From IMG/VR virus record IMGVR_UViG_2802429224_000016: 9,821 nucleotides of DNA; one strand, written 5' to 3'. Shown here piece by piece: positions 1-9,821 of this stretch (position 1 is its first letter; every line of letters begins with the position of its first letter). Under the pieces are notes generated by a model. It was not told the DNA's origin and searched no databases. It saw only the letters and a program-made list of their open reading frames with translations. This stretch comes from a virus (taxonomy: Duplodnaviria; Heunggongvirae; Uroviricota; Caudoviricetes). Both the position numbers and the translations under genes were made by a program.

Positions 1-1047
1 GTCGCGGGATTTGATGTATTGCTGGTTTCTTTCCCGTTCATCCAGCAGTGCCAGCACGGTTTCTGGTCCGGCCAGAAATTTGAAGGCGTTGAGCGCATCA
101 ATATCCACACCGTAATCTTTAAGTTCCTGTTCACTTAACAAATCATCATCAGATGGCAACATTAACAGGCGTTCCATTGCTGGAATTGCACGTTCCGCCA
201 CCTCACGCAGTGCCTGGTAATTAATTTCGCTCACTGGTTGCCTCCTTTGCGAATCTGTTCCTCTGCGAATCTGTTCCTCCCATTCTTCAAGGGATTTCTC
301 CGCATATTCACCGGACAGGCCATCAATCGGGTACGGTTCATTAGCCAACTCTTCTTTCGCTGACAGAATCATGCGCGTAACGTCGAAAACTTCACGCAAA
401 GACTTATTGATAAATCCGTGATTGAACGCAGCAGCAAGACGGCTGGCGGTATAGTTAATCCCCTCGTTGCGTGCTTCCGCCCGAACTTCAGCCAGGAAAG
501 CGTCGGTGGCTGGGGTTTCGACATTAGGTCGAAGCTCATAATCACAAACTCTTTCAATCCATGGTGATACTCTGTCGCATTTCCTCTTCTTGCGTTCACC
601 GACCTTGGTTGCCTGCTGAATAATTACCCCCCAGCAAATGCTTTCGACCTCTTCGCTCCATCCATCGCAAGCATCGCCTCTATAGTCGTCAATTGCAGCC
701 TCAGCAGCAGCGATAGCCTCCTCAGCAGTTTTGTGACACTCGAAACTAAATTCAGAGCCATATGAGAAATACATAGCCCCGGCCTTAAGCCCCGCATTCT
801 CCGCCGCCAGCGCCGAAAACTTCTCGTGTGCCAACTTAACAGCCGAATCAGCCTGCTTAATTGACTCAATCGCTTTCTGCTGGTCTTCGGCCAGCGCATT
901 AGCACGCACCAGTTGCACTTCCAGTTGCGTTGCCAAATCGCTGATCAGCTTTGCCACACTACGCATATCAACGGCACCACATTCTGCTTTCAGTTCCGAA
1001 GCCATCTCATGCCCGGCGGAAACTAACCCTTTGATATTACTTTCCAT
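1..1047 (-). CDS. Long ORF (349 codons in window, no stop before the left edge): unknown N-terminal part fused in frame to an Ea22-like module
   Basis: Manual translation of the minus strand from ATG 1047-1045 (GAGGG RBS 7 nt upstream) is open through position 1: MESNIKGLVSAGHEMASELKAE...EWEEQIRRGTDSQRRQPVSEINYQALREVAERAIP...PETVLALLDERERNQQYIKSRD. It is absent from the supplied ORF track, presumably because no stop lies in the window. The segment after internal GTG 234-232 (perfect AGGAGG 246-241, 6-nt spacer) matches the N-terminal signature I recall for prophage Ead/Ea22-like proteins (YQALRE...A, then ...TVLALLDER...). Track ORFs 369..599(-) and 624..905(-) are other frames inside this ORF. 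Confidence 0.6.
   Translation of the reverse strand, partial: MESNIKGLVSAGHEMASELKAECGAVDMRSVAKLISDLATQLEVQLVRANALAEDQQKAIESIKQADSAVKLAHEKFSALAAENAGLKAGAMYFSYGSEFSFECHKTAEEAIAAAEAAIDDYRGDACDGWSEEVESICWGVIIQQATKVGERKKRKCDRVSPWIERVCDYELRPNVETPATDAFLAEVRAEARNEGINYTASRLAAAFNHGFINKSLREVFDVTRMILSAKEELANEPYPIDGLSGEYAEKSLEEWEEQIRRGTDSQRRQPVSEINYQALREVAERAIPAMERLLMLPSDDDLLSEQELKDYGVDIDALNAFKFLAGPETVLALLDERERNQQYIKSRD
248..279. repeat. Perfect 16-bp tandem direct duplication (TGCGAATCTGTTCCTC x2, plus strand) inside the long ORF
   Basis: Positions 248-263 and 264-279 are identical. The unit is not a multiple of 3, so it alters the frame relative to a single-copy state. Confidence 0.9.
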
Positions 1048-1108
1048 CTTTACCCTCGCTTATCCACATAACTTATTGATTACATTGATAACTAAAAAGA
1101 TCGTCGAT

Positions 1109-1453
1109 TCAGAACTCTTCGATGTTCCAGCCACCACCTGCTTTCTTTGGCTTAACCGTTACCCCGATGATTCGGAACGGATACTGATCTGCGGCGACTT
1201 TGGTTTTCACCCTGGCGTCGTCGGTCCAGAAACCTTTCACTTCGTGCAGTTCCATCTCGCCGGTGGCGAGCATCACAGCAAAATCGGGCGTATAGAACGT
1301 GTTGTCAGCTAACCGCAGCTTGATACCCTCGAATCGATACCAGGCGATTTCCCCTGCACGTTTACGCTGCTCAAGGTGCTGGCAATACGCAGATTCTGTT
1401 TTGTTCATCTGGCCTGTTTTGAGTCGACCAAGAGCCTGTATCTGTTTTCTCAT
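1109..1453 (-). CDS. DUF1064-like predicted PD-(D/E)xK nuclease (Holliday-junction-resolvase-like fold), 114 aa
   Basis: ORF with ATG 1453 preceded by AGAGGT (5-nt spacer). The protein carries a PD...ExK-type arrangement (YTPDF ... ELHEVKG) and the AGEI...L.L...YTPDF.V pattern I associate with phage DUF1064 proteins. Family call is from memory. Confidence 0.65.
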   Translation of the reverse strand: MRKQIQALGRLKTGQMNKTESAYCQHLEQRKRAGEIAWYRFEGIKLRLADNTFYTPDFAVMLATGEMELHEVKGFWTDDARVKTKVAADQYPFRIIGVTVKPKKAGGGWNIEEF

Positions 1454-1456
1454 GAT

Positions 1457-1533
1457 TTACCTCTAAGGTAATTAAAAACCACATAAGACACGAAATCAAT
1501 AGAGTTTAGAATGTTTTGTTACCTGATAGGTAA
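1457..1533. promoter_or_regulatory. Two operator-like palindromes TTACC-N5-GGTAA (1457-1471 TTACCTCTAAGGTAA; 1519-1533 TTACCTGATAGGTAA)
   Basis: Perfect 5-bp inverted half-sites with a 5-bp spacer, the same motif as in the oR/oL-like regions. Site 1457-1471 overlaps the RBS/5' UTR of the DUF1064-like gene. Confidence 0.5.
1471..1499 (-). promoter_or_regulatory. Candidate sigma70 promoter for the DUF1064-like/Ea22-like unit
   Basis: On the minus strand: -35 TTGATT (plus 1499-1494), 17-bp spacer, -10 TTTAAT (plus 1476-1471). The -10 lacks the conserved A at position 2, so this is weak. The 1457-1471 operator lies immediately downstream of the -10. Confidence 0.3.
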
Positions 1534-1545
1534 TTATTGAGACGT

Positions 1546-1566
1546 AAAAAAATGCGCTATCGCGCT
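1546..1566 (-). terminator. Weak intrinsic-terminator-like element after the P-like gene
   Basis: On the minus strand GCGC-GAUA-GCGC (plus 1554-1565) is followed by a 7-U run (plus A-run 1546-1552). The stem is only 4 bp. Confidence 0.2.
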
Positions 1567-1570
1567 GGTA

Positions 1571-2356
1571 TTACTTGATAAATCCTGCCGCCTTTCCCCG
1601 CCTGTATTCCTCCATCAGCCACTGCGCCGGTGTTATTCCCCCAAGGGTGGCGGCGTTAGGCATGCACCCGAAACTTCGCCCTGGTGGATGGTAAACGTCT
1701 CTCCCTGTGTCCGGAGGTGTACTCATGGGCTCTGGCTTTGCCTGTATGCTGATCACCGGATCGGGTATCTGCTGTCCGGAAGCCACCTTTTTCGCCCAAT
1801 CATCGAGCAGCCTGCGCGCGTGTTTCTCAACCTCAATCTCGCTAAGCTGGCGCTGATACATTGCACGGCGGGTATCACATACGACCCAGTACATAACCGG
1901 ATGTCGCCACGGGAATCTTTCGGGACCACCAGGATATAAACTTTTTTCCTTGCTGTACCGATGAAACTCCGCCATCACATCGTCAATGGTGACGCCAAGA
2001 ACCATCTTGCTGTCTTTACACCACTTGATGAATTGCCCTGGCGACGGCCAGAACGGAGATTCACTGGCGCGGGCGTGGCGCATACCAGCAGAAACCTGTT
2101 CACGGGTTCGGATCCCACTTTCAGCAAACGCAGCAATCCACTGCTGTTTTGCAGCGACTTCCTGCTCTGGCGTCTTCAGGTTGGTTACCACTGCCGCCGG
2201 AAACAGTTGTTTCAGCTGTTTGAAAAGGGCATCAACAAGCCTCTCTGCTGACATGTTCACCACATTGTCATTGTTGACGTACTGATGCTCATAACCTGAC
2301 ATGCGAGAAAGGGCTTCTCCGTCACGGTTTTGTATCGCGGTAAAAACGTTGTTCAC
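1571..2356 (-). CDS. Lambda P-like replication protein (replicative helicase loader)
   Basis: Conserved block WIAAFAESGIRTREQVSAGMRHARASESPFWPSPGQFIKWC resembles lambda P (recalled as RRQWVLAFRENGITTMEQVNAGMRVARRQNRPFLPSPGQFVAWC). Preferred start is GTG 2356-2354, with GGAGGA 6 nt upstream and a GTGA overlap with the O-like stop. The track's ATG 2371 is an in-frame alternative without an RBS. Confidence 0.85.
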   Translation of the reverse strand: MNNVFTAIQNRDGEALSRMSGYEHQYVNNDNVVNMSAERLVDALFKQLKQLFPAAVVTNLKTPEQEVAAKQQWIAAFAESGIRTREQVSAGMRHARASESPFWPSPGQFIKWCKDSKMVLGVTIDDVMAEFHRYSKEKSLYPGGPERFPWRHPVMYWVVCDTRRAMYQRQLSEIEVEKHARRLLDDWAKKVASGQQIPDPVISIQAKPEPMSTPPDTGRDVYHPPGRSFGCMPNAATLGGITPAQWLMEEYRRGKAAGFIK

Positions 2357-3168
2357 AAGAAATCCTCCCATGCTTCAGGGCTGTTCCAGTGCGGAACGTT
2401 GTTATCAGGTAATGTTGATTGCTTCTGTCTGCTAATCTGCAGCCGCCTTGCCAGCTTCTGCTCCCACTGTGCCTGATGGTATGCCTTACCCTCAGCCATC
2501 CAGTAAATTCTGAACTCTGCAAGTTCCTGTGCCGTTGGCAGACTGTCCAGGTAGATCCCCTGCAATGAGCTTTTCCGAAGAAAGTCATCTGATGGCTGCC
2601 ATTGTTCATGCATGACAAATTTGCCTAATTGCCCTGGCCCACGAGGAGGAACAAAGTTATTCATCACGGCGTTGTTTGCGCCGGGGTCATGAGGCACAGA
2701 ATCCCCGCTTTTTGTCCTGCTCTCCCTCTCTTGGTTAAATGACTGGTTATATGACTGGTTCTGGATCCCGTTTTTGGGATCATTCAACATCCCGTTTTTG
2801 GGATCATTCAACATCCCGTTTTTGGGTATATTCCCGTTTTCGGTAACATTACCGTTTTCGGGTTCATTACCCCCCTCCCGGTTGCCTTTAATGTTCCCGT
2901 TTTTGGTTATATTAAGAGAGAAAACCCGTACTCTTTTCGTCGCCCCCTTTCTCTCTCCGGTATCTGAAATAAGCCCCATTTTCATGAGCGATATAAGCCC
3001 GGCCTGCACGGTTTTTTTATTCAGGCAAGTGTCTTTAACGAGGCGTTCTATGCTGGGGTAGCAGAGGTTATATTCATCGGCTCTGTCAGCCATCGAGAGC
3101 AGTATGAGCTTTAATGACGAGCTACCTGGATCTGTCTCCCAGGCCCAATCTGTTGCATGTCTGCTCAT
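2353..3168 (-). CDS. Lambda O-like replication initiator (N-terminal HTH, iteron-encoded low-complexity linker, DnaT/O-like C-terminal domain)
   Basis: 271-aa ORF with ATG 3168 and GGAG RBS. The central peptide repeats (NDPKNGML x2, NG periodicity) are encoded by the iteron array. The C-terminal block QWQPSDDFLRKSSLQGIYLDSLPTAQELAEFRIYWMAEGKAYHQAQWEQKLARRLQ resembles the C-terminal domain of lambdoid O/DnaT-like proteins. Immediately upstream of the P-like gene. Confidence 0.8.
   Translation of the reverse strand: MSRHATDWAWETDPGSSSLKLILLSMADRADEYNLCYPSIERLVKDTCLNKKTVQAGLISLMKMGLISDTGERKGATKRVRVFSLNITKNGNIKGNREGGNEPENGNVTENGNIPKNGMLNDPKNGMLNDPKNGIQNQSYNQSFNQERESRTKSGDSVPHDPGANNAVMNNFVPPRGPGQLGKFVMHEQWQPSDDFLRKSSLQGIYLDSLPTAQELAEFRIYWMAEGKAYHQAQWEQKLARRLQISRQKQSTLPDNNVPHWNSPEAWEDFL
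2765..2910. repeat. Origin-of-replication iteron array inside the O-like gene
   Basis: Two identical 24-bp units ATCCCGTTTTTGGGATCATTCAAC (2765-2788, 2789-2812), a third variant (2813-2836) and degenerate copies with core CCCGTTTT(T)NGG (about 2833, 2852, 2896). The core ATCCC-N6-GGGAT has internal dyad symmetry, as lambda iterons do. Confidence 0.7.
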
Positions 3169-3183
3169 GATTAATCTCCGCTA

Positions 3184-3384
3184 TCAGCTTGAATGTTGTG
3201 GGGTGGAATTAATCATGATCTGCTTAATCTCTGCCCTGATGCGACGGTTTGATTCCATGGTGCACTCAACACAGTGTCCGTTGTAAACCCAGCGTTCACT
3301 GTCATGTCCGTGCTTACATGGTTTTCCGGTGTAGTAGCGTTTAAGTCCGCGCTTTGCGGCATCAATACGTGTAATGATTTCCAT
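3184..3384 (-). CDS. Small Cys/His-rich (putative zinc-binding) protein, 66 aa, at the cII-equivalent position
   Basis: ATG 3384 gives MEIITRIDAAKRGLKRYYTGKPCKHGHDSERWVYNGHCVECTMESNRR... with a C-x-H-x-H...H-C-x2-C arrangement. The track ORF extends to 3447, but that start is a TTG and the added N-terminus is a hydrophobic run. No family recognised. Confidence 0.45.
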   Translation of the reverse strand: MEIITRIDAAKRGLKRYYTGKPCKHGHDSERWVYNGHCVECTMESNRRIRAEIKQIMINSTPQHSS

Positions 3385-3464
3385 GGTAAGCCCTGTTATT
3401 AGTATTGGGATTACGGTTATTTTGTGCTGACACAAAAAAAAGATCAACCAGATTTGGTTTTTTA

Positions 3465-3479
3465 TTACCTTTGAGGTAC
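3465..3479. promoter_or_regulatory. Operator-like site TTACCTTTGAGGTAC (14 of 15 match to TTACC-N5-GGTAA)
   Basis: Lies between the post-cro terminator and the Cys/His-rich gene. Followed on the minus strand by a possible weak promoter (TTGATC-N17-CAAAAT). Confidence 0.35.
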
Positions 3480-3480
3480 G

Positions 3481-3513
3481 AATAGATATGAAAAGACCGC
3501 CACCCGGCGGTCT
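3481..3513 (-). terminator. Rho-independent terminator downstream of the Cro-like gene (tR1-like position)
   Basis: Minus-strand RNA AGACCGCC-GGGU-GGCGGUCU (plus 3494-3513; 8-bp GC-rich stem, 4-nt loop) followed by UUUUCAUAUCUAUU. On the plus strand it is preceded by A's rather than followed by T's, so it is unidirectional. Confidence 0.6.
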
Positions 3514-3534
3514 ACAGAGGGTTGTAGCTGGATA

Positions 3535-3765
3535 TCATGAGTAGAAGAAGTATGCCAGTTCTGCTTTTGAGCGCAGCCATTGTCTTGTTTTACAGGCTTT
3601 AAAAAGCCCATTCATCAATACTTTACCTGGCATTTTGCGCTTACCTGTTAAGTGAGTCTGGATATAGTGACTCGTCGTTCCGGCTTCCTGTGCGAAGGCT
3701 TCACGCTCATCCGGAGTAAGTGCAAGCCAGTGCTTTTTGAAATCGAAATGTCCGTTATCGCTCAT
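3535..3765 (-). CDS. Cro-like small HTH regulator (76 aa)
   Basis: Divergent from the repressor gene. The segment AGTTSHYIQTHLTGKRKMPGKVL resembles the lambda Cro recognition region (recalled as GVYQSAINKAIHAGRKIFL). Position and orientation match cro in a lambdoid immunity region. Confidence 0.65.
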   Translation of the reverse strand: MSDNGHFDFKKHWLALTPDEREAFAQEAGTTSHYIQTHLTGKRKMPGKVLMNGLFKACKTRQWLRSKAELAYFFYS

Positions 3766-3790
3766 AGCTATTGCCTGATATTTATTTCAG

Positions 3791-3819
3791 ATAATAAATA
3801 TTCACCCATAAGGTAACAA
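3791..3819 (-). promoter_or_regulatory. pR-like promoter driving the Cro-like gene
   Basis: On the minus strand: -35 TTGTTA (plus 3819-3814), 17-bp spacer, -10 TATTAT (plus 3796-3791). Operator site 3802-3816 sits inside the spacer/-35. Confidence 0.45.
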
Positions 3820-3864
3820 AAATCAAGGATAGTTACCTATGAGGTGCATTTACCTGTTGGGTAA
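3802..3864. promoter_or_regulatory. oR-like tripartite operator (3802-3816 TCACCCATAAGGTAA; 3833-3847 TTACCTATGAGGTGC; 3850-3864 TTACCTGTTGGGTAA)
   Basis: Three 15-bp palindromic sites in the divergent intergenic region between the Cro-like and repressor genes, centre spacings 31 and 17 bp. One perfect, two with 1-2 mismatches. Confidence 0.55.
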
Positions 3865-3919
3865 TATTGCTTTAAATTGAATCATCTACTGATTCATATA
3901 TGAGGCGATTTTCCAGAAA

Positions 3920-4504
3920 ATGAAAAGTATCCAGGACGTCCGCAGGCAAAATCTCAACGACTTGATCGACCGTGAATTCAATGGTGTTCAGACGCGGATG
4001 GCAGAAAAACTTGGAACTCAGGCAAATCTGGTAAACCGCTGGGCTCTTGGCAAGAAGGTTATCGGCGACCAGGTTGCGCGAAAAATTGAAGCTGCCGCCA
4101 ATAAACCCCGTAACTGGCTTGATATCGATCGCTCGCTTTCTCAGGAAGGTTTTCAGCCTGTCGGCCCGAGTGATATAGGTCAGCTGGCTGCTCACAACCT
4201 GGAACGCTGGATGAGCGAAAGCCGCGACCTTTCAACGCAGGGAAAACTACACCGCGCATCCGGCGTCGCCCAGGTGACAATCAGCCGCCTGTTAAACAAT
4301 GAGGTCAGCGTTTCCATTTCCACCCTGGAGAATGTTGCATCTGCATTCGGGCGTCATGGCTATGAATTACTGATTCACCCGCACGACCCTGCGACTATCA
4401 ACTATGACCGCTCGCGCTACGCATTGTTACCCGAAACCGAGAAAGCAAAGATCGAAAGTTACATTGAATTTGTCATCAACCAGAACGAAAAAAACAAACA
4501 ATAA
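3920..4504 (+). CDS. Putative prophage repressor with tandem HTH_XRE-like domains, no S24/LexA-type peptidase domain (194 aa)
   Basis: First HTH around QTRMAEKLGTQANLVNRWALGKKVIGDQVARKIEAA, second around LHRASGVAQVTISRLLNNEVSVSISTLENVASAFG. No Ser/Lys autocleavage motif seen in the C-terminus. cI-equivalent position: divergent from cro, flanked by both operator clusters. No SD upstream of ATG 3920, so a leaderless transcript is possible. Confidence 0.7.
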   Translation: MKSIQDVRRQNLNDLIDREFNGVQTRMAEKLGTQANLVNRWALGKKVIGDQVARKIEAAANKPRNWLDIDRSLSQEGFQPVGPSDIGQLAAHNLERWMSESRDLSTQGKLHRASGVAQVTISRLLNNEVSVSISTLENVASAFGRHGYELLIHPHDPATINYDRSRYALLPETEKAKIESYIEFVINQNEKNKQ

Positions 4505-4524
4505 AACTATAGTTTTCAGCAAGT

Positions 4525-4550
4525 AAGCCGCCATGAGGCGGCTTTTTTAT
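4525..4550 (+). terminator. Rho-independent terminator after the repressor gene
   Basis: AAGCCGCC-ATGA-GGCGGCTT (4525-4544) followed by TTTTTTATT. Confidence 0.7.
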
Positions 4551-4561
4551 TGCCTGTTAGA

Positions 4562-4638
4562 TTACCTGTTGGGTAATTTTTTTAACTCATATCTATTGAC
4601 ATCAAACCAGATACGCATAATTATTACCTAAACGGTAA
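4562..4638. promoter_or_regulatory. oL-like operator pair (4562-4576 TTACCTGTTGGGTAA; 4624-4638 TTACCTAAACGGTAA)
   Basis: Two perfect palindromes flanking a candidate promoter. The 16-mer TTACCTGTTGGGTAAT is identical to the site at 3850-3865. Confidence 0.55.
4596..4624 (+). promoter_or_regulatory. pL-like promoter for the rightward early operon
   Basis: Perfect -35 TTGACA (4596-4601). The -10 is either AATTAT at 17-bp spacing (4619-4624) or CATAAT at 14-bp spacing (4616-4621). The -10 region abuts or overlaps operator 4624-4638. Confidence 0.35.
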
Positions 4639-4657
4639 CAGACCGAGGTAACAAGTT

Positions 4658-4810
4658 ATGCAGTGGAAAATCATCAACGGTTGGTACTGCGTTACTGCAT
4701 GCGGATTCATGAGCTGGAAGTTCCGCACCTTACAGGAAGGCATCAAGTGGGCTTTCGTCAGCAAAGAAGCTCGCGATGTGGCCAACGATAACGAGATATG
4801 GGAGGGCTGA
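4658..4810 (+). CDS. Small hypothetical protein (50 aa, Trp-rich), first gene of the rightward operon
   Basis: ATG 4658 with GAGGT 8 nt upstream: MQWKIINGWYCVTACGFMSWKFRTLQEGIKWAFVSKEARDVANDNEIWEG, stop TGA 4808-4810. Below the length cutoff of the supplied ORF track. No family recognised. Confidence 0.4.
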   Translation: MQWKIINGWYCVTACGFMSWKFRTLQEGIKWAFVSKEARDVANDNEIWEG

Positions 4811-4812
4811 TA

Positions 4813-5112
4813 ATGAACGTTAATCAGCAGAAAAATCTTCAAAAAATCATGCTGGCATTCGACAAGGACTACCGCCTGTCAGAACAGCTATATGACCGAC
4901 AAGTTGAACTGATTGAGAGCATCCGACTTCATCAACTGTCCTCAACTTTCGACGTTGTAACAGGCAAAGGCGTTCGTCAGGAAGTACTGGAGGCTGCTAA
5001 AGACAGCCCTGAGTTCGAAGAACTGATGGATGCCTATCGGCGAGAGGCAATGGCAATTATCGCCCGCTGGGATCTGGCGGATCAGCTTGATGGACAGAGG
5101 GACGCGGCATGA
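4813..5112 (+). CDS. Hypothetical protein (99 aa), translationally coupled to the downstream exonuclease gene
   Basis: ATG 4813 with GGAGGG (4801-4806) 6 nt upstream; the track's ATG 4798 lacks an RBS. Stop overlaps the exonuclease start (ATGA at 5109-5112). No family recognised. Confidence 0.55.
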   Translation: MNVNQQKNLQKIMLAFDKDYRLSEQLYDRQVELIESIRLHQLSSTFDVVTGKGVRQEVLEAAKDSPEFEELMDAYRREAMAIIARWDLADQLDGQRDAA

Positions 5113-6008
5113 TGCGGAACGCTGGAATCATGGATAGAACAAAATACATCGGAGGAAGCGATGTTGCAGGGATTCTTGGAATTAGCCCATGGCGCACCCC
5201 GCTTGAGGTTTATCTGGATAAGGTCCAGCCACGTGTCAAACCAGTAGACCCAAGCAAGCAGAAAGTTTTCACGCGTGGCCAGCGTATGGAGCCATACGTA
5301 ATAGACCTGCTTTCTGAGGAAACAGGGATGGAAATCGTTCATCGCGGAAACCGCTATATCCACCGTGATTACGATTTTATTGCAGCTGAGATCGATGCAG
5401 AAGCAGCGTCAGGCGAGAACATTGAGATCAAAACAGTTAGTCCGTTCAAAGCCAAAGAATGGGGAGAAATCCAGACAGATGCAATTCCTGTGCATTACAC
5501 GGCCCAGGCCATGCACGGGTTGATGGTTACAAACAAACAGGTATGCGTTTTCGGTGTGCTTATCGGTGGCGACGACTTCCGAATCTATCGGGTTGAGCGT
5601 GATGAAGAAACTATCCAGGCGATCTTAGAAAAAGAAATCGCTTTCTGGGACCGAGTGAAAAATCTTAACCCGCCGGAAGCTACCAGCGTAAGCGATGTAT
5701 CGCTGATGTTTGAGAAAGATGCCGGGACAAGTATCGAGGCTGACGGAAAGGCACTCGCACTATTCAACGATCTACGAGACATGAAGTCACGCAGAAAATC
5801 ACTGGAAGAAGAAATAGCTATATCAGAAGAGAAGCTGAAGATGTACATGCAAGAGCACTCAGTCCTGACCCTGGACGGAAAGCCGCTCTGCACATGGAAA
5901 TCTCAGATCAGCAACAGATTCGACCAGAAGCTATTCCAGTCAGTACACCCTGAGTTATTCGAAAAATTCAAAACAACAACGACACAACGCGTCTTCAGAA
6001 TGAAGTAA
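5109..6008 (+). CDS. YqaJ-type viral recombinase-associated exonuclease (lambda-Exo superfamily, PD-(D/E)xK)
   Basis: N-terminal motif IGGSDVAGILGISPWRTPLEVY is typical of YqaJ-family phage exonucleases. Sits immediately upstream of recT. GAGGG RBS before ATG 5109. Confidence 0.85.
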   Translation: MMRNAGIMDRTKYIGGSDVAGILGISPWRTPLEVYLDKVQPRVKPVDPSKQKVFTRGQRMEPYVIDLLSEETGMEIVHRGNRYIHRDYDFIAAEIDAEAASGENIEIKTVSPFKAKEWGEIQTDAIPVHYTAQAMHGLMVTNKQVCVFGVLIGGDDFRIYRVERDEETIQAILEKEIAFWDRVKNLNPPEATSVSDVSLMFEKDAGTSIEADGKALALFNDLRDMKSRRKSLEEEIAISEEKLKMYMQEHSVLTLDGKPLCTWKSQISNRFDQKLFQSVHPELFEKFKTTTTQRVFRMK

Positions 6009-6017
6009 GGAGAAAAA

Positions 6018-7040
6018 ATGTCTATCAATGCACTTAAGGCAGCGGCTACCGGTAACCAAGTTGCACATCATAATGAGAAACCAACAACTCTGGCCGGACT
6101 TCTGGCAGACCCAAAAATTAAAGCTCAGATGGCTTTGGCACTTCCAAAGCACATGACAGCAGACCGTCTGGCGCGCATAGCAACCACAGAGATCCGAAAG
6201 GTTCCAAAACTTGCATCATGCGACCAAGCCAGCTTCCTGGGGGCAATTATGCAATGTGCCCAATTGGGTCTTGAACCAGGCGGAGCTCTTGGACACGCTT
6301 ACCTGATACCGTTCGACAAACGCCAGAAAGTAAATGGAAGATGGGAAACCGTATCTACAGAAGCACAGCTGATTATCGGCTATCGCGGAATGATTGACCT
6401 TGCCCGCCGCTCTGGGCAGATCCTGAGTATCTCGGCTCGTACCGTACATACAAACGACAAATTCAGCTACTCATACGGCCTGGAAGAAACGCTCGAGCAT
6501 TTACCTTGCGAAACAGGTGACCGCGGAGAATTAACGCACGTTTACGCCGTTGCACGACTGAAAGATGGCGGAGTCCAATTTGAAGTTATGAGCCGGGCAG
6601 ACGTTGAGAAAGTTCGTGCACTGAGCAAAGCCGGTAGCAGTGGCCCATGGGTTGATCACTTCGATGAGATGGCTAAAAAAACAGTAATTCGCCGACTGTT
6701 CAAATATCTTCCTGTTTCTATTGAAATGCAGAAGGCTGTTGTTATGGATGAGCGCGCTGAAGCTGGACTTAGCCAAGATAACGCAGCTGTTATCACTGGT
6801 GAATATTCCGTAGTTGACGATGAGCGTCAACACCTGTCGCCAATTTCAGATTCAGAACGAGAAGAAGCTCGAGAATATATCATCGCGATACTTAATAGCC
6901 TGGATCCATCTGCTGAAGATGCAAAAACGATGTTCAAGCGCGCTGAAAATGAAATTAACACCATGGCTGACAAGCTCGGTGATGAATATCACCAAAAATT
7001 CATGATGACGCTTAACGATATGCGTCCAGAATTCGAGTAA
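6018..7040 (+). CDS. recT: RecT-family single-strand annealing recombinase
   Basis: Strong resemblance to Rac-prophage RecT as recalled: MTADRLARIATTEIRKVP, LIIGYRGMIDLARRSGQI, THVYAVARLKDGGVQFEVM, GPWVDHFDEMAKKTVIRRLFKYLPVSIE. AAGGAG RBS before ATG 6018. Confidence 0.9.
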   Translation: MSINALKAAATGNQVAHHNEKPTTLAGLLADPKIKAQMALALPKHMTADRLARIATTEIRKVPKLASCDQASFLGAIMQCAQLGLEPGGALGHAYLIPFDKRQKVNGRWETVSTEAQLIIGYRGMIDLARRSGQILSISARTVHTNDKFSYSYGLEETLEHLPCETGDRGELTHVYAVARLKDGGVQFEVMSRADVEKVRALSKAGSSGPWVDHFDEMAKKTVIRRLFKYLPVSIEMQKAVVMDERAEAGLSQDNAAVITGEYSVVDDERQHLSPISDSEREEAREYIIAILNSLDPSAEDAKTMFKRAENEINTMADKLGDEYHQKFMMTLNDMRPEFE

Positions 7041-7089
7041 CCACCACCGCGGCGCCACACGCGCCGCACTGCAACCAAGAGAGGTATTT

Positions 7090-7338
7090 ATGAAAGGTGC
7101 ATTAGGTAAGAAGGAACTCCTGGCGGTGGTGCCACTGTCATGGAGCACTATCGACCGTATGGAGCGCGCAGGGGAATTTCCTAAACGCTGGTATATCACC
7201 GATAAACGCTGCGCATGGAACCGTGATGAAGTTGAGCGTTGGCTTGATGAACGTCAGGCAGCAAGCCCGGCAGAGTTCCAGGGTAAAAAGCCTCCGGTTC
7301 AGCAACGTGTATATCGTCCTGTGAGCAACGCTGCATGA
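7090..7338 (+). CDS. AlpA/Xis-like small winged-HTH protein (putative excisionase or regulator), 82 aa
   Basis: Motif LLAVVPLSWSTIDRMERAGEFPKRWYITDKRCAWNRDEVERWLDER fits the AlpA/Vis/TorI excisionase-type fold as I recall it. AGAGAGG RBS. Lies between recT and int. Confidence 0.7.
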   Translation: MKGALGKKELLAVVPLSWSTIDRMERAGEFPKRWYITDKRCAWNRDEVERWLDERQAASPAEFQGKKPPVQQRVYRPVSNAA

Positions 7339-7433
7339 GTGTGCTGCAAATGGTCAGGATGGTACTTATTCCTGGCCTCTGTTTCAGCATGGCTTTATCT
7401 GCTGGCATTAATTTTAAGAGAGGGTTGGATTAA

Positions 7434-7733
7434 GTGAGAAAGTTAAGCCGACTTGAAAAATATCACATGAATAAGGTTTCAATGCGCAGTCCGTCAAAGA
7501 TTGTCGCCGTTACTCCTGCGGCGATAGAGATCGAAAAACGCGCGATTGAACGAGAGAAAAAAGGGCAGTTCCGCATTGCCGCCCACCTTTGGCTTCAGTG
7601 TATGGATGTTGCTTCTGGTGATGTTGAGCGTGCAAGGATCGCGGTTCGCAGGGACCAATGTATCACAAAAGGTAACGGCCTTCGCCGTGGCGACTATAGC
7701 GGCATAGGATGTTGCGGGGTGGTTTATGACTAA
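7434..7733 (+). CDS. Hypothetical small protein (99 aa)
   Basis: Coordinates taken from the supplied ORF track; my own reading of the first two codons from the sequence text did not reproduce the track's start, so the start is uncertain (ATG 7467 is an in-frame alternative). Stop TAA 7731-7733 overlaps the methyltransferase start (ATGACTAA). Confidence 0.45.
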   Translation: MRKLSRLEKYHMNKVSMRSPSKIVAVTPAAIEIEKRAIEREKKGQFRIAAHLWLQCMDVASGDVERARIAVRRDQCITKGNGLRRGDYSGIGCCGVVYD

Positions 7734-8376
7734 GAAATACACACTAATCTATGCAGATCCACCCTGGGTATACCGGGACAAAGCCGCAGATGGTAATCGC
7801 GGTGCCGGTTTTAAATATCCAGTTATGAGTGTGCTGGATATCTGCCGCCTTCCTGTGTGGGATTTGGCCGCTGAAAACTGTCTGTTGGCCATGTGGTGGG
7901 TGCCAACACAACCACTCGAAGCACTAAAAGTTGTTGAAGCCTGGGGATTTCGTCTTATGACCATGAAGGGCTTCACGTGGATAAAATGTGGTAGTCGACA
8001 ACCAGATAAACTGGTTATGGGTATGGGACACATGACCCGCGCCAATAGTGAAGATTGCCTGTTTGCGGTAAAGGGAAAACTACCTCCGCGCATTAATGCA
8101 GGGATCGTTCAGTCATTTACCGCACCGCGGCTTGAGCACTCAAGAAAACCAGATGTCGTTCGTGAAAAACTTGTGCAATTGTTAGGCGATGTTTCTCGCA
8201 TTGAACTGTTCGCCCGCCAGTCGTCTCATGACTTCGATGTTTGGGGTAATCAGTGCGAAAACTCGGCAGTGCAACTACACCCTGGATACGCGTTGGATAT
8301 TGGCGGATTAACAAATGCATTCAGCAATTCTCCGCTGTCACCAACAGACAACCAGGGGCGGGAGCGTGCTGCATGA
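7726..8376 (+). CDS. MT-A70-family N6-adenine DNA methyltransferase (DPPW motif), 216 aa
   Basis: N-terminal YTLIYADPPWVY contains the DPPW catalytic motif of MT-A70-type amino-methyltransferases. No adjacent restriction endonuclease gene in the window. Confidence 0.8.
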   Translation: MTKKYTLIYADPPWVYRDKAADGNRGAGFKYPVMSVLDICRLPVWDLAAENCLLAMWWVPTQPLEALKVVEAWGFRLMTMKGFTWIKCGSRQPDKLVMGMGHMTRANSEDCLFAVKGKLPPRINAGIVQSFTAPRLEHSRKPDVVREKLVQLLGDVSRIELFARQSSHDFDVWGNQCENSAVQLHPGYALDIGGLTNAFSNSPLSPTDNQGRERAA

Positions 8377-8567
8377 ACAGGGCATCACCAGCAGATTTAA
8401 GAAAATGCCTTGAAACTGCAAACATGCTTGCACACAGCGGGATCAGGTTTGTTCCAATTCCCGCTGTCACTGATGCTGAATTTGCAACACTGTCAGCAAT
8501 ATTCGAAAACAAAATTGAATCACTGGCAGCAGAAGCAGAGATGGAAGAAAATCAGCAGAACTATTAA
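8373..8567 (+). CDS. Hypothetical protein (64 aa), translationally coupled to the methyltransferase
   Basis: ATG 8373 overlaps the methyltransferase stop (ATGA); GGGAG 8 nt upstream. The longer track ORF from 8253 overlaps the methyltransferase in another frame and is rejected. Product MNRASPADLRKCLETANMLAHSGIRFVPIPAVTDAEFATLSAIFENKIESLAAEAEMEENQQNY. Confidence 0.45.
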   Translation: MNRASPADLRKCLETANMLAHSGIRFVPIPAVTDAEFATLSAIFENKIESLAAEAEMEENQQNY

Positions 8568-8570
8568 ACG

Positions 8571-9821
8571 TTATTCCCCCGCCATCCACTTCTCAAACTT
8601 CGACGGGGAGAACGGAATCAGATCCGTATGCTCCCCGTTAATCCAGGAATCAATCATATCGGCCCACTGCTGCAACATGTAGGCGCGCTGTCTGGCGTAT
8701 TCCGCTTTGTTATATACGGCGCGCACACCTTTCTGCTCATGTGCCAGAGCCTTTTCAATCCAGTCTGAAGGATAACCAGCCTCATGCAACAACGTACTGG
8801 CTGTACGGCGCATATCGTGTACGGTGAAGCCCTGAATATGCTCACCATCTTCATTTATTATTTTCACCGTTCTGTCGATCAGAGAGTTCAGCGCGGCATT
8901 AGATAATGGCTTCCGGAAATTGTAACGACCAGGAACCAGATATTCACTTCCACCAGCGCACATCTGCAACCCAACCAATATATCCTGTGCCTGTTTAGGC
9001 AGGTAAATAACGTGCGCCCGGCTTCCCTTCATGCGGTCTGAAGGAATTGTCCATGTCCATTTTTTAAAATCTATTTCATCCCACGTTGCATTGGTGAATT
9101 CGCCTTTACGAACCATAGTGATAAGCACCAGCTTTAAAGCAATTTTCATAGTGCCCATAGCACCAATGGCATCCAGCGTGCGGAAGAACAGGCCAATTTC
9201 TTCTGGTGTCAGTGTTCGCTCTCGTGGTTTAAATATGGCGATAGACGAAGGTTTAATGTCAGCCGCAGGATTAAACAAACCATGACCACGGTCATTGGCG
9301 TGACGGTATACGCTGCTGATGATCTCCCTGGCCTGTACTGCTGTTGCCCGACCACCACGTTCGACAATGCGGTCACACAAATCACGAACCATCGATGTGG
9401 TAATTTCAGCCATCATTTTGTTGCCAAGAACCGGAAGTATGTCACGGTCGATCACCGCCTGCTTCATTGCGCGGGTACTGTCAGCCAGGATGACGTGTTT
9501 CATATAACTGTCGGTATGTACCGCAAACGTCTCGGCACCACGAATCTTTTTGATACCGTCACGTTTAGCCGCAGCCGGTGACTGGCCTGCTTTAAGCAGC
9601 TTCTTTGCAGCAATCAGTTCTTCTCGCGCTTCTGCCAGGCTGATACCGTCACGCCCATACTGCCCGATTACCAGTGTTTCGCGGCGACCGTTGATACGGT
9701 AGTCATAGCGAAACGAGACCGTGCCTGACGTAAGAACAGCTACATACAGCCCGTCACGATCGGAGACCTTGTACAGTTTGTCCTGCGGCTTGAGGTTTTT
9801 TAATTTTGTATCGGTAAGCAC
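8571..9821 (-). CDS. int: Tyrosine recombinase / phage integrase (P4-type N-terminus), 5' end truncated by the window edge
   Basis: 416 codons open to the window end. N-terminal LTDTKLKNLKPQDKLYKVSDRDGLYV is a P4-like integrase signature; the C-terminus carries HxxR (HDMRRT) and the catalytic-Tyr region (VRAVYNKAEY). The first in-window codon is GTG, so the true start probably lies just beyond 9821. Confidence 0.9.
   Translation of the reverse strand: MLTDTKLKNLKPQDKLYKVSDRDGLYVAVLTSGTVSFRYDYRINGRRETLVIGQYGRDGISLAEAREELIAAKKLLKAGQSPAAAKRDGIKKIRGAETFAVHTDSYMKHVILADSTRAMKQAVIDRDILPVLGNKMMAEITTSMVRDLCDRIVERGGRATAVQAREIISSVYRHANDRGHGLFNPAADIKPSSIAIFKPRERTLTPEEIGLFFRTLDAIGAMGTMKIALKLVLITMVRKGEFTNATWDEIDFKKWTWTIPSDRMKGSRAHVIYLPKQAQDILVGLQMCAGGSEYLVPGRYNFRKPLSNAALNSLIDRTVKIINEDGEHIQGFTVHDMRRTASTLLHEAGYPSDWIEKALAHEQKGVRAVYNKAEYARQRAYMLQQWADMIDSWINGEHTDLIPFSPSKFEKWMAGE

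Follow-up and report, generated by a model that had tools for sequence, protein, structure and literature searches.

The 16-bp sequence TGCGAATCTGTTCCTC occurs twice, head to tail, on the plus strand (248-263 and 264-279) of the stretch of 9,821 nt analysed here (the window), and the extra copy is probably the product of a recent tandem duplication, private to the isolate, in the conserved linker with which a prophage accessory gene ends. With both copies in place, the minus-strand frame of this accessory gene (the upstream gene) runs on into that of the Ead/Ea22-like gene that follows it. A first-pass annotation, made from the sequence of the window, had drawn attention to the two back-to-back copies at 248-279, which a direct check of the sequence and Tandem Repeats Finder both bear out. 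It had also proposed that, through the duplication, the upstream ORF becomes fused in frame with an Ea22-like gene, a reading supported by the frame itself and by the one-copy homologues.

Genomic setting and layout of the duplicated junction

The window is the first 9,821 nt of contig PTST01000018.1 (98,237 bp) of the draft assembly GCA_002965365.1 of Escherichia marmotae MOD1-EC5948, an isolate from duck faeces collected in Alaska in 2008 (PMC11546641), and it covers the early region of a phiV10-like (Uetakevirus) prophage. The integrase gene (8571-9821), whose start codon coincides with the far end of the window, is followed in the gene order by those of a methyltransferase, RecT and a YqaJ-type exonuclease, by the repressor gene (3920-4504) and a cro-like gene, by the gene of a DnaT/O-like initiator (2353-3168, minus strand) and a lambda P-like gene, and by a DUF1064 gene (1109-1453), after which come the upstream gene and the Ea22-like gene. 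The operon starts at cro and continues through O and P, with the last two genes at its distal end; given this gene order, both should be silent in the lysogen.

Three adjoining tandem arrays are found at 2732-2871, inside the initiator gene (12 nt x 2.4, 24 nt x 2.6, the latter perfect, and 18 nt x 3.1), where they encode a repeated ..NGN..PKNGMLNDPKNG.. stretch of the DnaT/O-like protein; they resemble the iterons of an origin located inside its initiator gene, as is the case for lambda O. The closest relative among complete genomes, E. coli EC21 (H101, NZ_CM169480.1), is homologous to window positions 259-9821 and is approximately 1.1 kb longer there; the genes listed for the match include that of a DGQHR domain-containing protein, possibly an additional cargo gene that the window lacks. 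In E. coli NADC1036 the same prophage region has identical matches in the chromosome (NZ_CP076264.1) and in a separate 38.7-kb circular record (locus L005, NZ_CP076267.1, 'pNADC1036guaAphage'), which, from its name and size, looks like an excised phage genome.

Tandem Repeats Finder, run on the window, reports the duplicated region as an array at 243-279 with a period of 16 and 2.3 copies. A script listing the perfect tandem repeats with a unit of at least 8 nt in the window returned the 16-mer as the only one besides the 24-nt origin-region repeats that start at 2765, and the chance expectation of a perfect 16+16 tandem in 9.8 kb is approximately 2e-6. On the coding (minus) strand, the first (5') copy, GAGGAACAGATTCGCA (264-279), encodes ..E-E-Q-I-R in the native frame of the upstream protein, while the second (248-263) is read in a shifted frame (..GTDSQ..) and corresponds to a 16-nt insertion with respect to the relatives, none of which has it. 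The AGGAGG ribosome-binding site (RBS) of the downstream gene (246-241) is left intact by the duplication, six nt 5' of the GTG start (234-232), which overlaps, in a GTGA motif (231-234), the TGA stop of the upstream gene (233-231), now out of frame. The junction thus reads, on the minus strand, ...GAA TGG GAG GAA CAG ATT CGC AGA GGA ACA GAT TCG CAA AGG AGG CAA CCA GTG AGC GAA ATT..., with CGCAGAGGAAC as the new copy-copy junction made by the tandem duplication. The frame that opens at ATG 1047 meets no stop through 349 codons, down to window position 1, with the translation ...EEWEEQIRRGTDSQRRQPVSEINYQALREV...; the ORF reading through the junction, the GTG and the AGGAGG are all present as first annotated. 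Deletion of one 16-mer in silico yields an 801-nt gene that ends EEQIRKGGNQ-TGA and overlaps the GTG.

The fused ORF (1-1047, minus strand) consists of 261 native residues of the upstream protein, a new 10-residue linker (RGTDSQRRQP), a Val that replaces the former start and the Ea22-like sequence, so that, by translation, the upstream protein loses only its five C-terminal residues (KGGNQ) and gains RGTDSQRRQPV plus the Ea22-like protein. If the downstream gene is like its 207-aa copy in E. coli PapM-32-1, the fusion is predicted to total approximately 478 aa, its true end lying beyond the contig.

The upstream gene (231-1047, minus strand; 801 nt in the one-copy form) is homologous to genes of 266-aa proteins named 'ead/Ea22-like family protein' or 'Eae' by NCBI. 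Its product is 96-97% identical to the closest proteins (P0001-P0005, 266 aa), all of which end in ..EQI[RS]KG plus three residues, and these last three vary among the homologues (GNQ, VQS, VQL, SSQ and GDK). A search with the 266-aa P0001 gave no match in Pfam or NCBIfam, and the 'ead/Ea22-like' name of the upstream protein is that of the source annotation only; the protein matches several PHROG families of unknown function and has modules in common with true Ea22-like proteins (P0018). The downstream gene, of which the 5' part is present (1-234, minus strand), does belong to the Ead/Ea22-like family, as the first-pass annotation had labelled it: residues 273-349 of the fusion match PF13935 with E = 2e-20 and 74.1 bits (gathering cut-off, 27), and the full-length homologue in PapM-32-1 reaches 104.5 bits. 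This gene is cut off at window position 1, which is the very end of contig PTST01000018.1, and its truncation is thus a matter of assembly rather than of biology. Annotation pipelines would see here an odd, truncated 'Ea22-like' protein at a contig end. Searches for solved structures by sequence gave nothing useful for either protein.

Copy number at homologous junctions

The first-pass annotation held that the window alone does not tell which state is ancestral, and proposed counting single-copy and double-copy junctions at homologous loci. The count settles the matter: among 204 loci drawn from phage, metagenome and E. coli records, a single copy of the 16-mer was found in all 201 homologous junctions that were scored, and two copies are present only in the window's own contig. 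In 200 of the 201 one-copy junctions the stop lies three codons after GGA and overlaps the start of the next gene, as GTGA in 180 cases and ATGA in 20. The gene end of the relatives has the form ...GAA TGG GCG GAA CAG ATT CGC AAA GGA NNN NNN NNN TGA, with a single 16-mer, and their upstream gene is annotated as 801 nt long with a 4-nt overlap with the next gene. As a DNA pattern, the one-copy form was matched in at least 120 viral contigs, 75 metagenome contigs and one genome contig.

Two of the loci deserve separate mention. L166, on the minus strand near 2422 of a human gut metagenome contig with approximately 1.4x coverage, stands alone among the 201 in having no overlapping stop, and its frame continues for some 40 codons past ..EQIRKG into another downstream sequence (..VLYMILPV..); it is either another junction type or a low-coverage error. 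L129 (JAFAFN010000164.1, 3,228 bp), labelled 'MAG: Actinomycetes bacterium', has the enterobacterial phage gene end exactly, and is probably a case of contamination or mis-binning in a metagenome-assembled genome.

E. coli PapM-32-1 (NZ_CP049204.1) has the same gene end and the same Ea22-like gene, including the rare GAG (Glu) variant, and its annotation gives separate genes of 204 and 207 aa that overlap by 4 nt. It provides a real example of the GTGA-coupled pair, ending in EEQIRKGGNQ, that the first-pass annotation had derived as the one-copy form. In the 215-nt alignment A1, the window differs from PapM-32-1 by the 16-nt insert and by one base near the 3' end, and all six aligned relatives have a 16-nt gap with respect to the window. 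The loci compared contain the Ea22 N-terminal motif 112 times; going upstream from the motif, an in-frame stop is reached within 50 codons at every occurrence but that in the window, where the distance is 278 codons. One copy with two genes is, on the evidence of the homologous junctions, the ancestral state. A recent, duplication-driven fusion, one of the alternatives originally put forward, is thus supported by the single copy in the 201 junctions together with the near-identical PapM-32-1 flanks. The opposite pattern, namely two copies in all homologues and conservation of the long protein, had been named as what would make the locus an ordinary gene; the fusion was found instead to be a singleton.

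The 16-mer is part of a conserved linker of approximately 30 nt, CAG MTY CGY AAA GGA GGC AAC CAG TGA (…[AE]Q[IL]RKGGNQ*), which holds the stop of one gene and the RBS and start of the next. Near-identical DNA over the last nine or so codons and the stop closes at least six unrelated upstream genes before the same Ea22-like gene, with homology to window positions 231-262 (for example, L005, L011, L025, L032, L041 and L110), and 35 different downstream sequences follow the gene end that bears the 16-mer. BLAST matches to the window break at 255-265. At this linker, many different gene modules meet in a mosaic boundary.

The two-copy junction was also sought directly. As a DNA pattern, it had no match in viral, genome or metagenome contigs. 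An 84-nt query across the junction was covered by 48% at most anywhere in 5,426 complete E. coli genomes, with the exception of the one-copy locus of PapM-32-1. In a protein database of 5.8 billion clusters, none of the matches listed spanned the junction, whether the query was the full fusion, a 174-aa junction piece or a 67-aa one; the best single alignments among the matches listed covered 76%, 52% and 55% of the query, and the 67-aa search, with 70 candidates retrieved, was the weakest of the three. By tblastn against phage records, every listed match (the best 40 of 92 high-coverage records) fell into two or more pieces, with no single continuous match. The long protein was not met as one ORF in independent genomes by protein searches, tblastn or the motif scan, and the same junction was not found in an independent assembly or a sister isolate, so that the two-copy state rests on a single record.

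Origin and consequences of the extra copy

The ancestral pair encodes a 266-aa protein ending in ...EEQIRKGGNQ, with its TGA overlapping the GTG of the Ead/Ea22-like gene and the AGGAGG lying within the last upstream codons, a layout typical of translationally coupled genes. The extra copy would then shift ribosomes coming from the upstream gene into the downstream frame five codons ahead of the old stop; with the TGA missed, translation would go on into the Ea22-like gene and give a fusion product. That the fusion is in frame follows from the length of the insert (16 = 3n+1) and from the position of the downstream start, one base before the upstream stop. A free Ea22-like protein can probably still be made, since its own RBS and GTG are unchanged. 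While the prophage is repressed, the effect is expected to be neutral or mildly deleterious.

The simplest origin of the duplication would be replication slippage or misalignment. The unit is bordered on either side by AGGA, with the two tetramers out of register by one base, and no microhomology is seen at the junction itself (…CGCA|GAGG…). Slippage between these tetramers and nothing else was considered and rejected, as it predicts an A at the copy junction, where a G is observed. Programmed ribosomal frameshifting was rejected as well, because inspection of the linker (GAA CAG ATT CGC AAA GGA GGC AAC CAG TGA) revealed no X XXY YYZ slippery heptamer in the zero frame and because the fusion in the window needs no frameshift. 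A structural RNA role for the repeat was likewise rejected, the folding energies of the junction being no better than those of shuffled sequences with either one or two copies.

It is rather unlikely that the extra 16 nt were introduced during library preparation, consensus calling or assembly near the contig end, and that the genome itself carries a single 16-mer with the two genes coupled. The position of the repeat (248-279), approximately 250 nt from the end of a 98-kb draft contig and in a region that is repetitive among prophages, makes such an artefact of sequencing, library or assembly somewhat more relevant. The contig breaks inside the Ea22-like gene, whose family is found at up to seven places per E. 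coli genome, so that reads from paralogous prophage copies may mix, and the two-copy junction is present in no other record of any collection searched. However, the copy-copy junction CGCAGAGGAAC is contained in no homologue, and mixing of paralogous reads cannot therefore create it. De Bruijn graph assemblers output only k-mers that are present in the reads. Furthermore, the window's remaining genes show neither disruption nor abnormal length, which argues against a generally error-ridden sequence, and small tandem duplications are a common class of real mutation.

A recent duplication in this one isolate thus remains the preferred reading, and it also has to be set against two explanations that would give the extra copy a function. 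The first, already raised in the first-pass annotation and now very improbable, is a slippage-prone switch (phase variation) in which gain and loss of the 16-nt unit would alternate the coupled two-gene state with the fusion. A perfect repeat of two units can in principle revert by slippage or by recombination between the copies and, given the frames, any 3n+1 insertion in the linker would yield a fusion. However, no copy-number polymorphism was detected: the 201 scored junctions all have one copy, and no second two-copy case emerged from three contig collections and the 5,426 E. coli genomes. In known contingency loci the tracts are longer, are made of short units and differ from strain to strain, unlike the two units found here; apart from the 4-nt AGGA, nothing repeated in the one-copy state would promote switching in the forward direction, and no significant structure is predicted for the junction RNA with one copy or with two.

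The second, for which there is hardly any probability, is that of a genuine, selected fusion gene, i.e. a multi-module member of the Ea22 family retained for the usefulness of its product. The proteins of this family are of a highly modular build, and the same C-terminal module is found behind an Ea22 N-terminal domain in proteins of 241-292 aa (P0018, P0121 and others). Moreover, the profile phrog_14548 (378 positions) aligns with the upstream C-terminus over positions 110-199 and, directly after it, with the Ea22-like N-terminus over 200-275, which hints at a colinear fusion of both modules in some phage record of PHROGs; no example of a fusion of this type was found in the 204 loci or in the searches. 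Against selection, the two copies are identical and the flanks are those of the two-gene relative bar the insert and one base, which leaves no time for it to have acted; no other record has the fusion, and the RBS and start of the downstream gene are kept unchanged.

With regard to the linker itself, it is already known in principle that modules swap at such a sequence and that a one-base change of frame inside it fuses the neighbours. A broader idea is that the linker with its GTGA overlap could be a ready-made, reversible fusion point, at which any 3n+1 insertion joins whichever modules adjoin, the window being either an intermediate in the building of multi-module Ea22-family proteins or a reversible two-state locus; we regard this as very improbable. 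If the duplication is real, its outcome is one E. marmotae isolate in which two prophage accessory genes of unknown function are read as one protein of approximately 478 aa. For accessory prophage genes of this sort, without known function, such a mutation is nothing unusual, and it has little meaning beyond annotation.

Comparison with known systems

The Ea22 protein of phage lambda favours lysogeny and is made of N-terminal, coiled-coil and C-terminal domains (PMC7093339, PMC10834534). The downstream gene resembles lambda Ea22 and the other PF13935 proteins in its N-terminus, which matches the family, and NCBI gives the name 'ead/Ea22-like family protein' to both genes of the pair. They differ from the lambda system in that the genes are found here downstream of phiV10-like replication genes rather than in the exo-xis region and, unlike PF13935 proteins, the 266-aa upstream protein has no Pfam or NCBIfam match.

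With the phase-variable contingency loci based on simple-sequence repeats, the junction shares a tandem repeat within coding sequence whose copy number sets the frame. In contrast to them, it has only two units of 16 nt, with no strain-to-strain variation, and these are placed at the 3' end of the gene rather than at its 5' end or in the promoter.

The coupled genes with ATGA or GTGA overlaps in the early operons of lambdoid and P22-like phages have exactly the form of the ancestral state here, with the RBS inside the upstream gene end. The difference is that the upstream frame of the window bypasses its former stop, so that coupling by termination and reinitiation would be replaced by read-through plus possible independent initiation at the downstream start.

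Conserved linker or boundary sequences are reportedly found at mosaic junctions of lambdoid genomes, in HK620 and its relatives (Clark et al. 2001, J Mol Biol 311:657). The sequence described here is similar in being a conserved linker between unrelated modules; it is unlike them in that the duplication is a small insertion inside the linker, with no exchange of modules.

The closest parallel is offered by small, frameshifting tandem duplications, which are ordinary spontaneous mutations. As in these, the copies are identical and head to tail, their length is not divisible by three, homologues lack the insert, and a stop is taken out of frame with the consequent joining of neighbouring ORFs. 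Nothing essential sets the present case apart from them, and what is particular to it is that the GTGA overlap places the downstream gene precisely in the 3n+1 frame.
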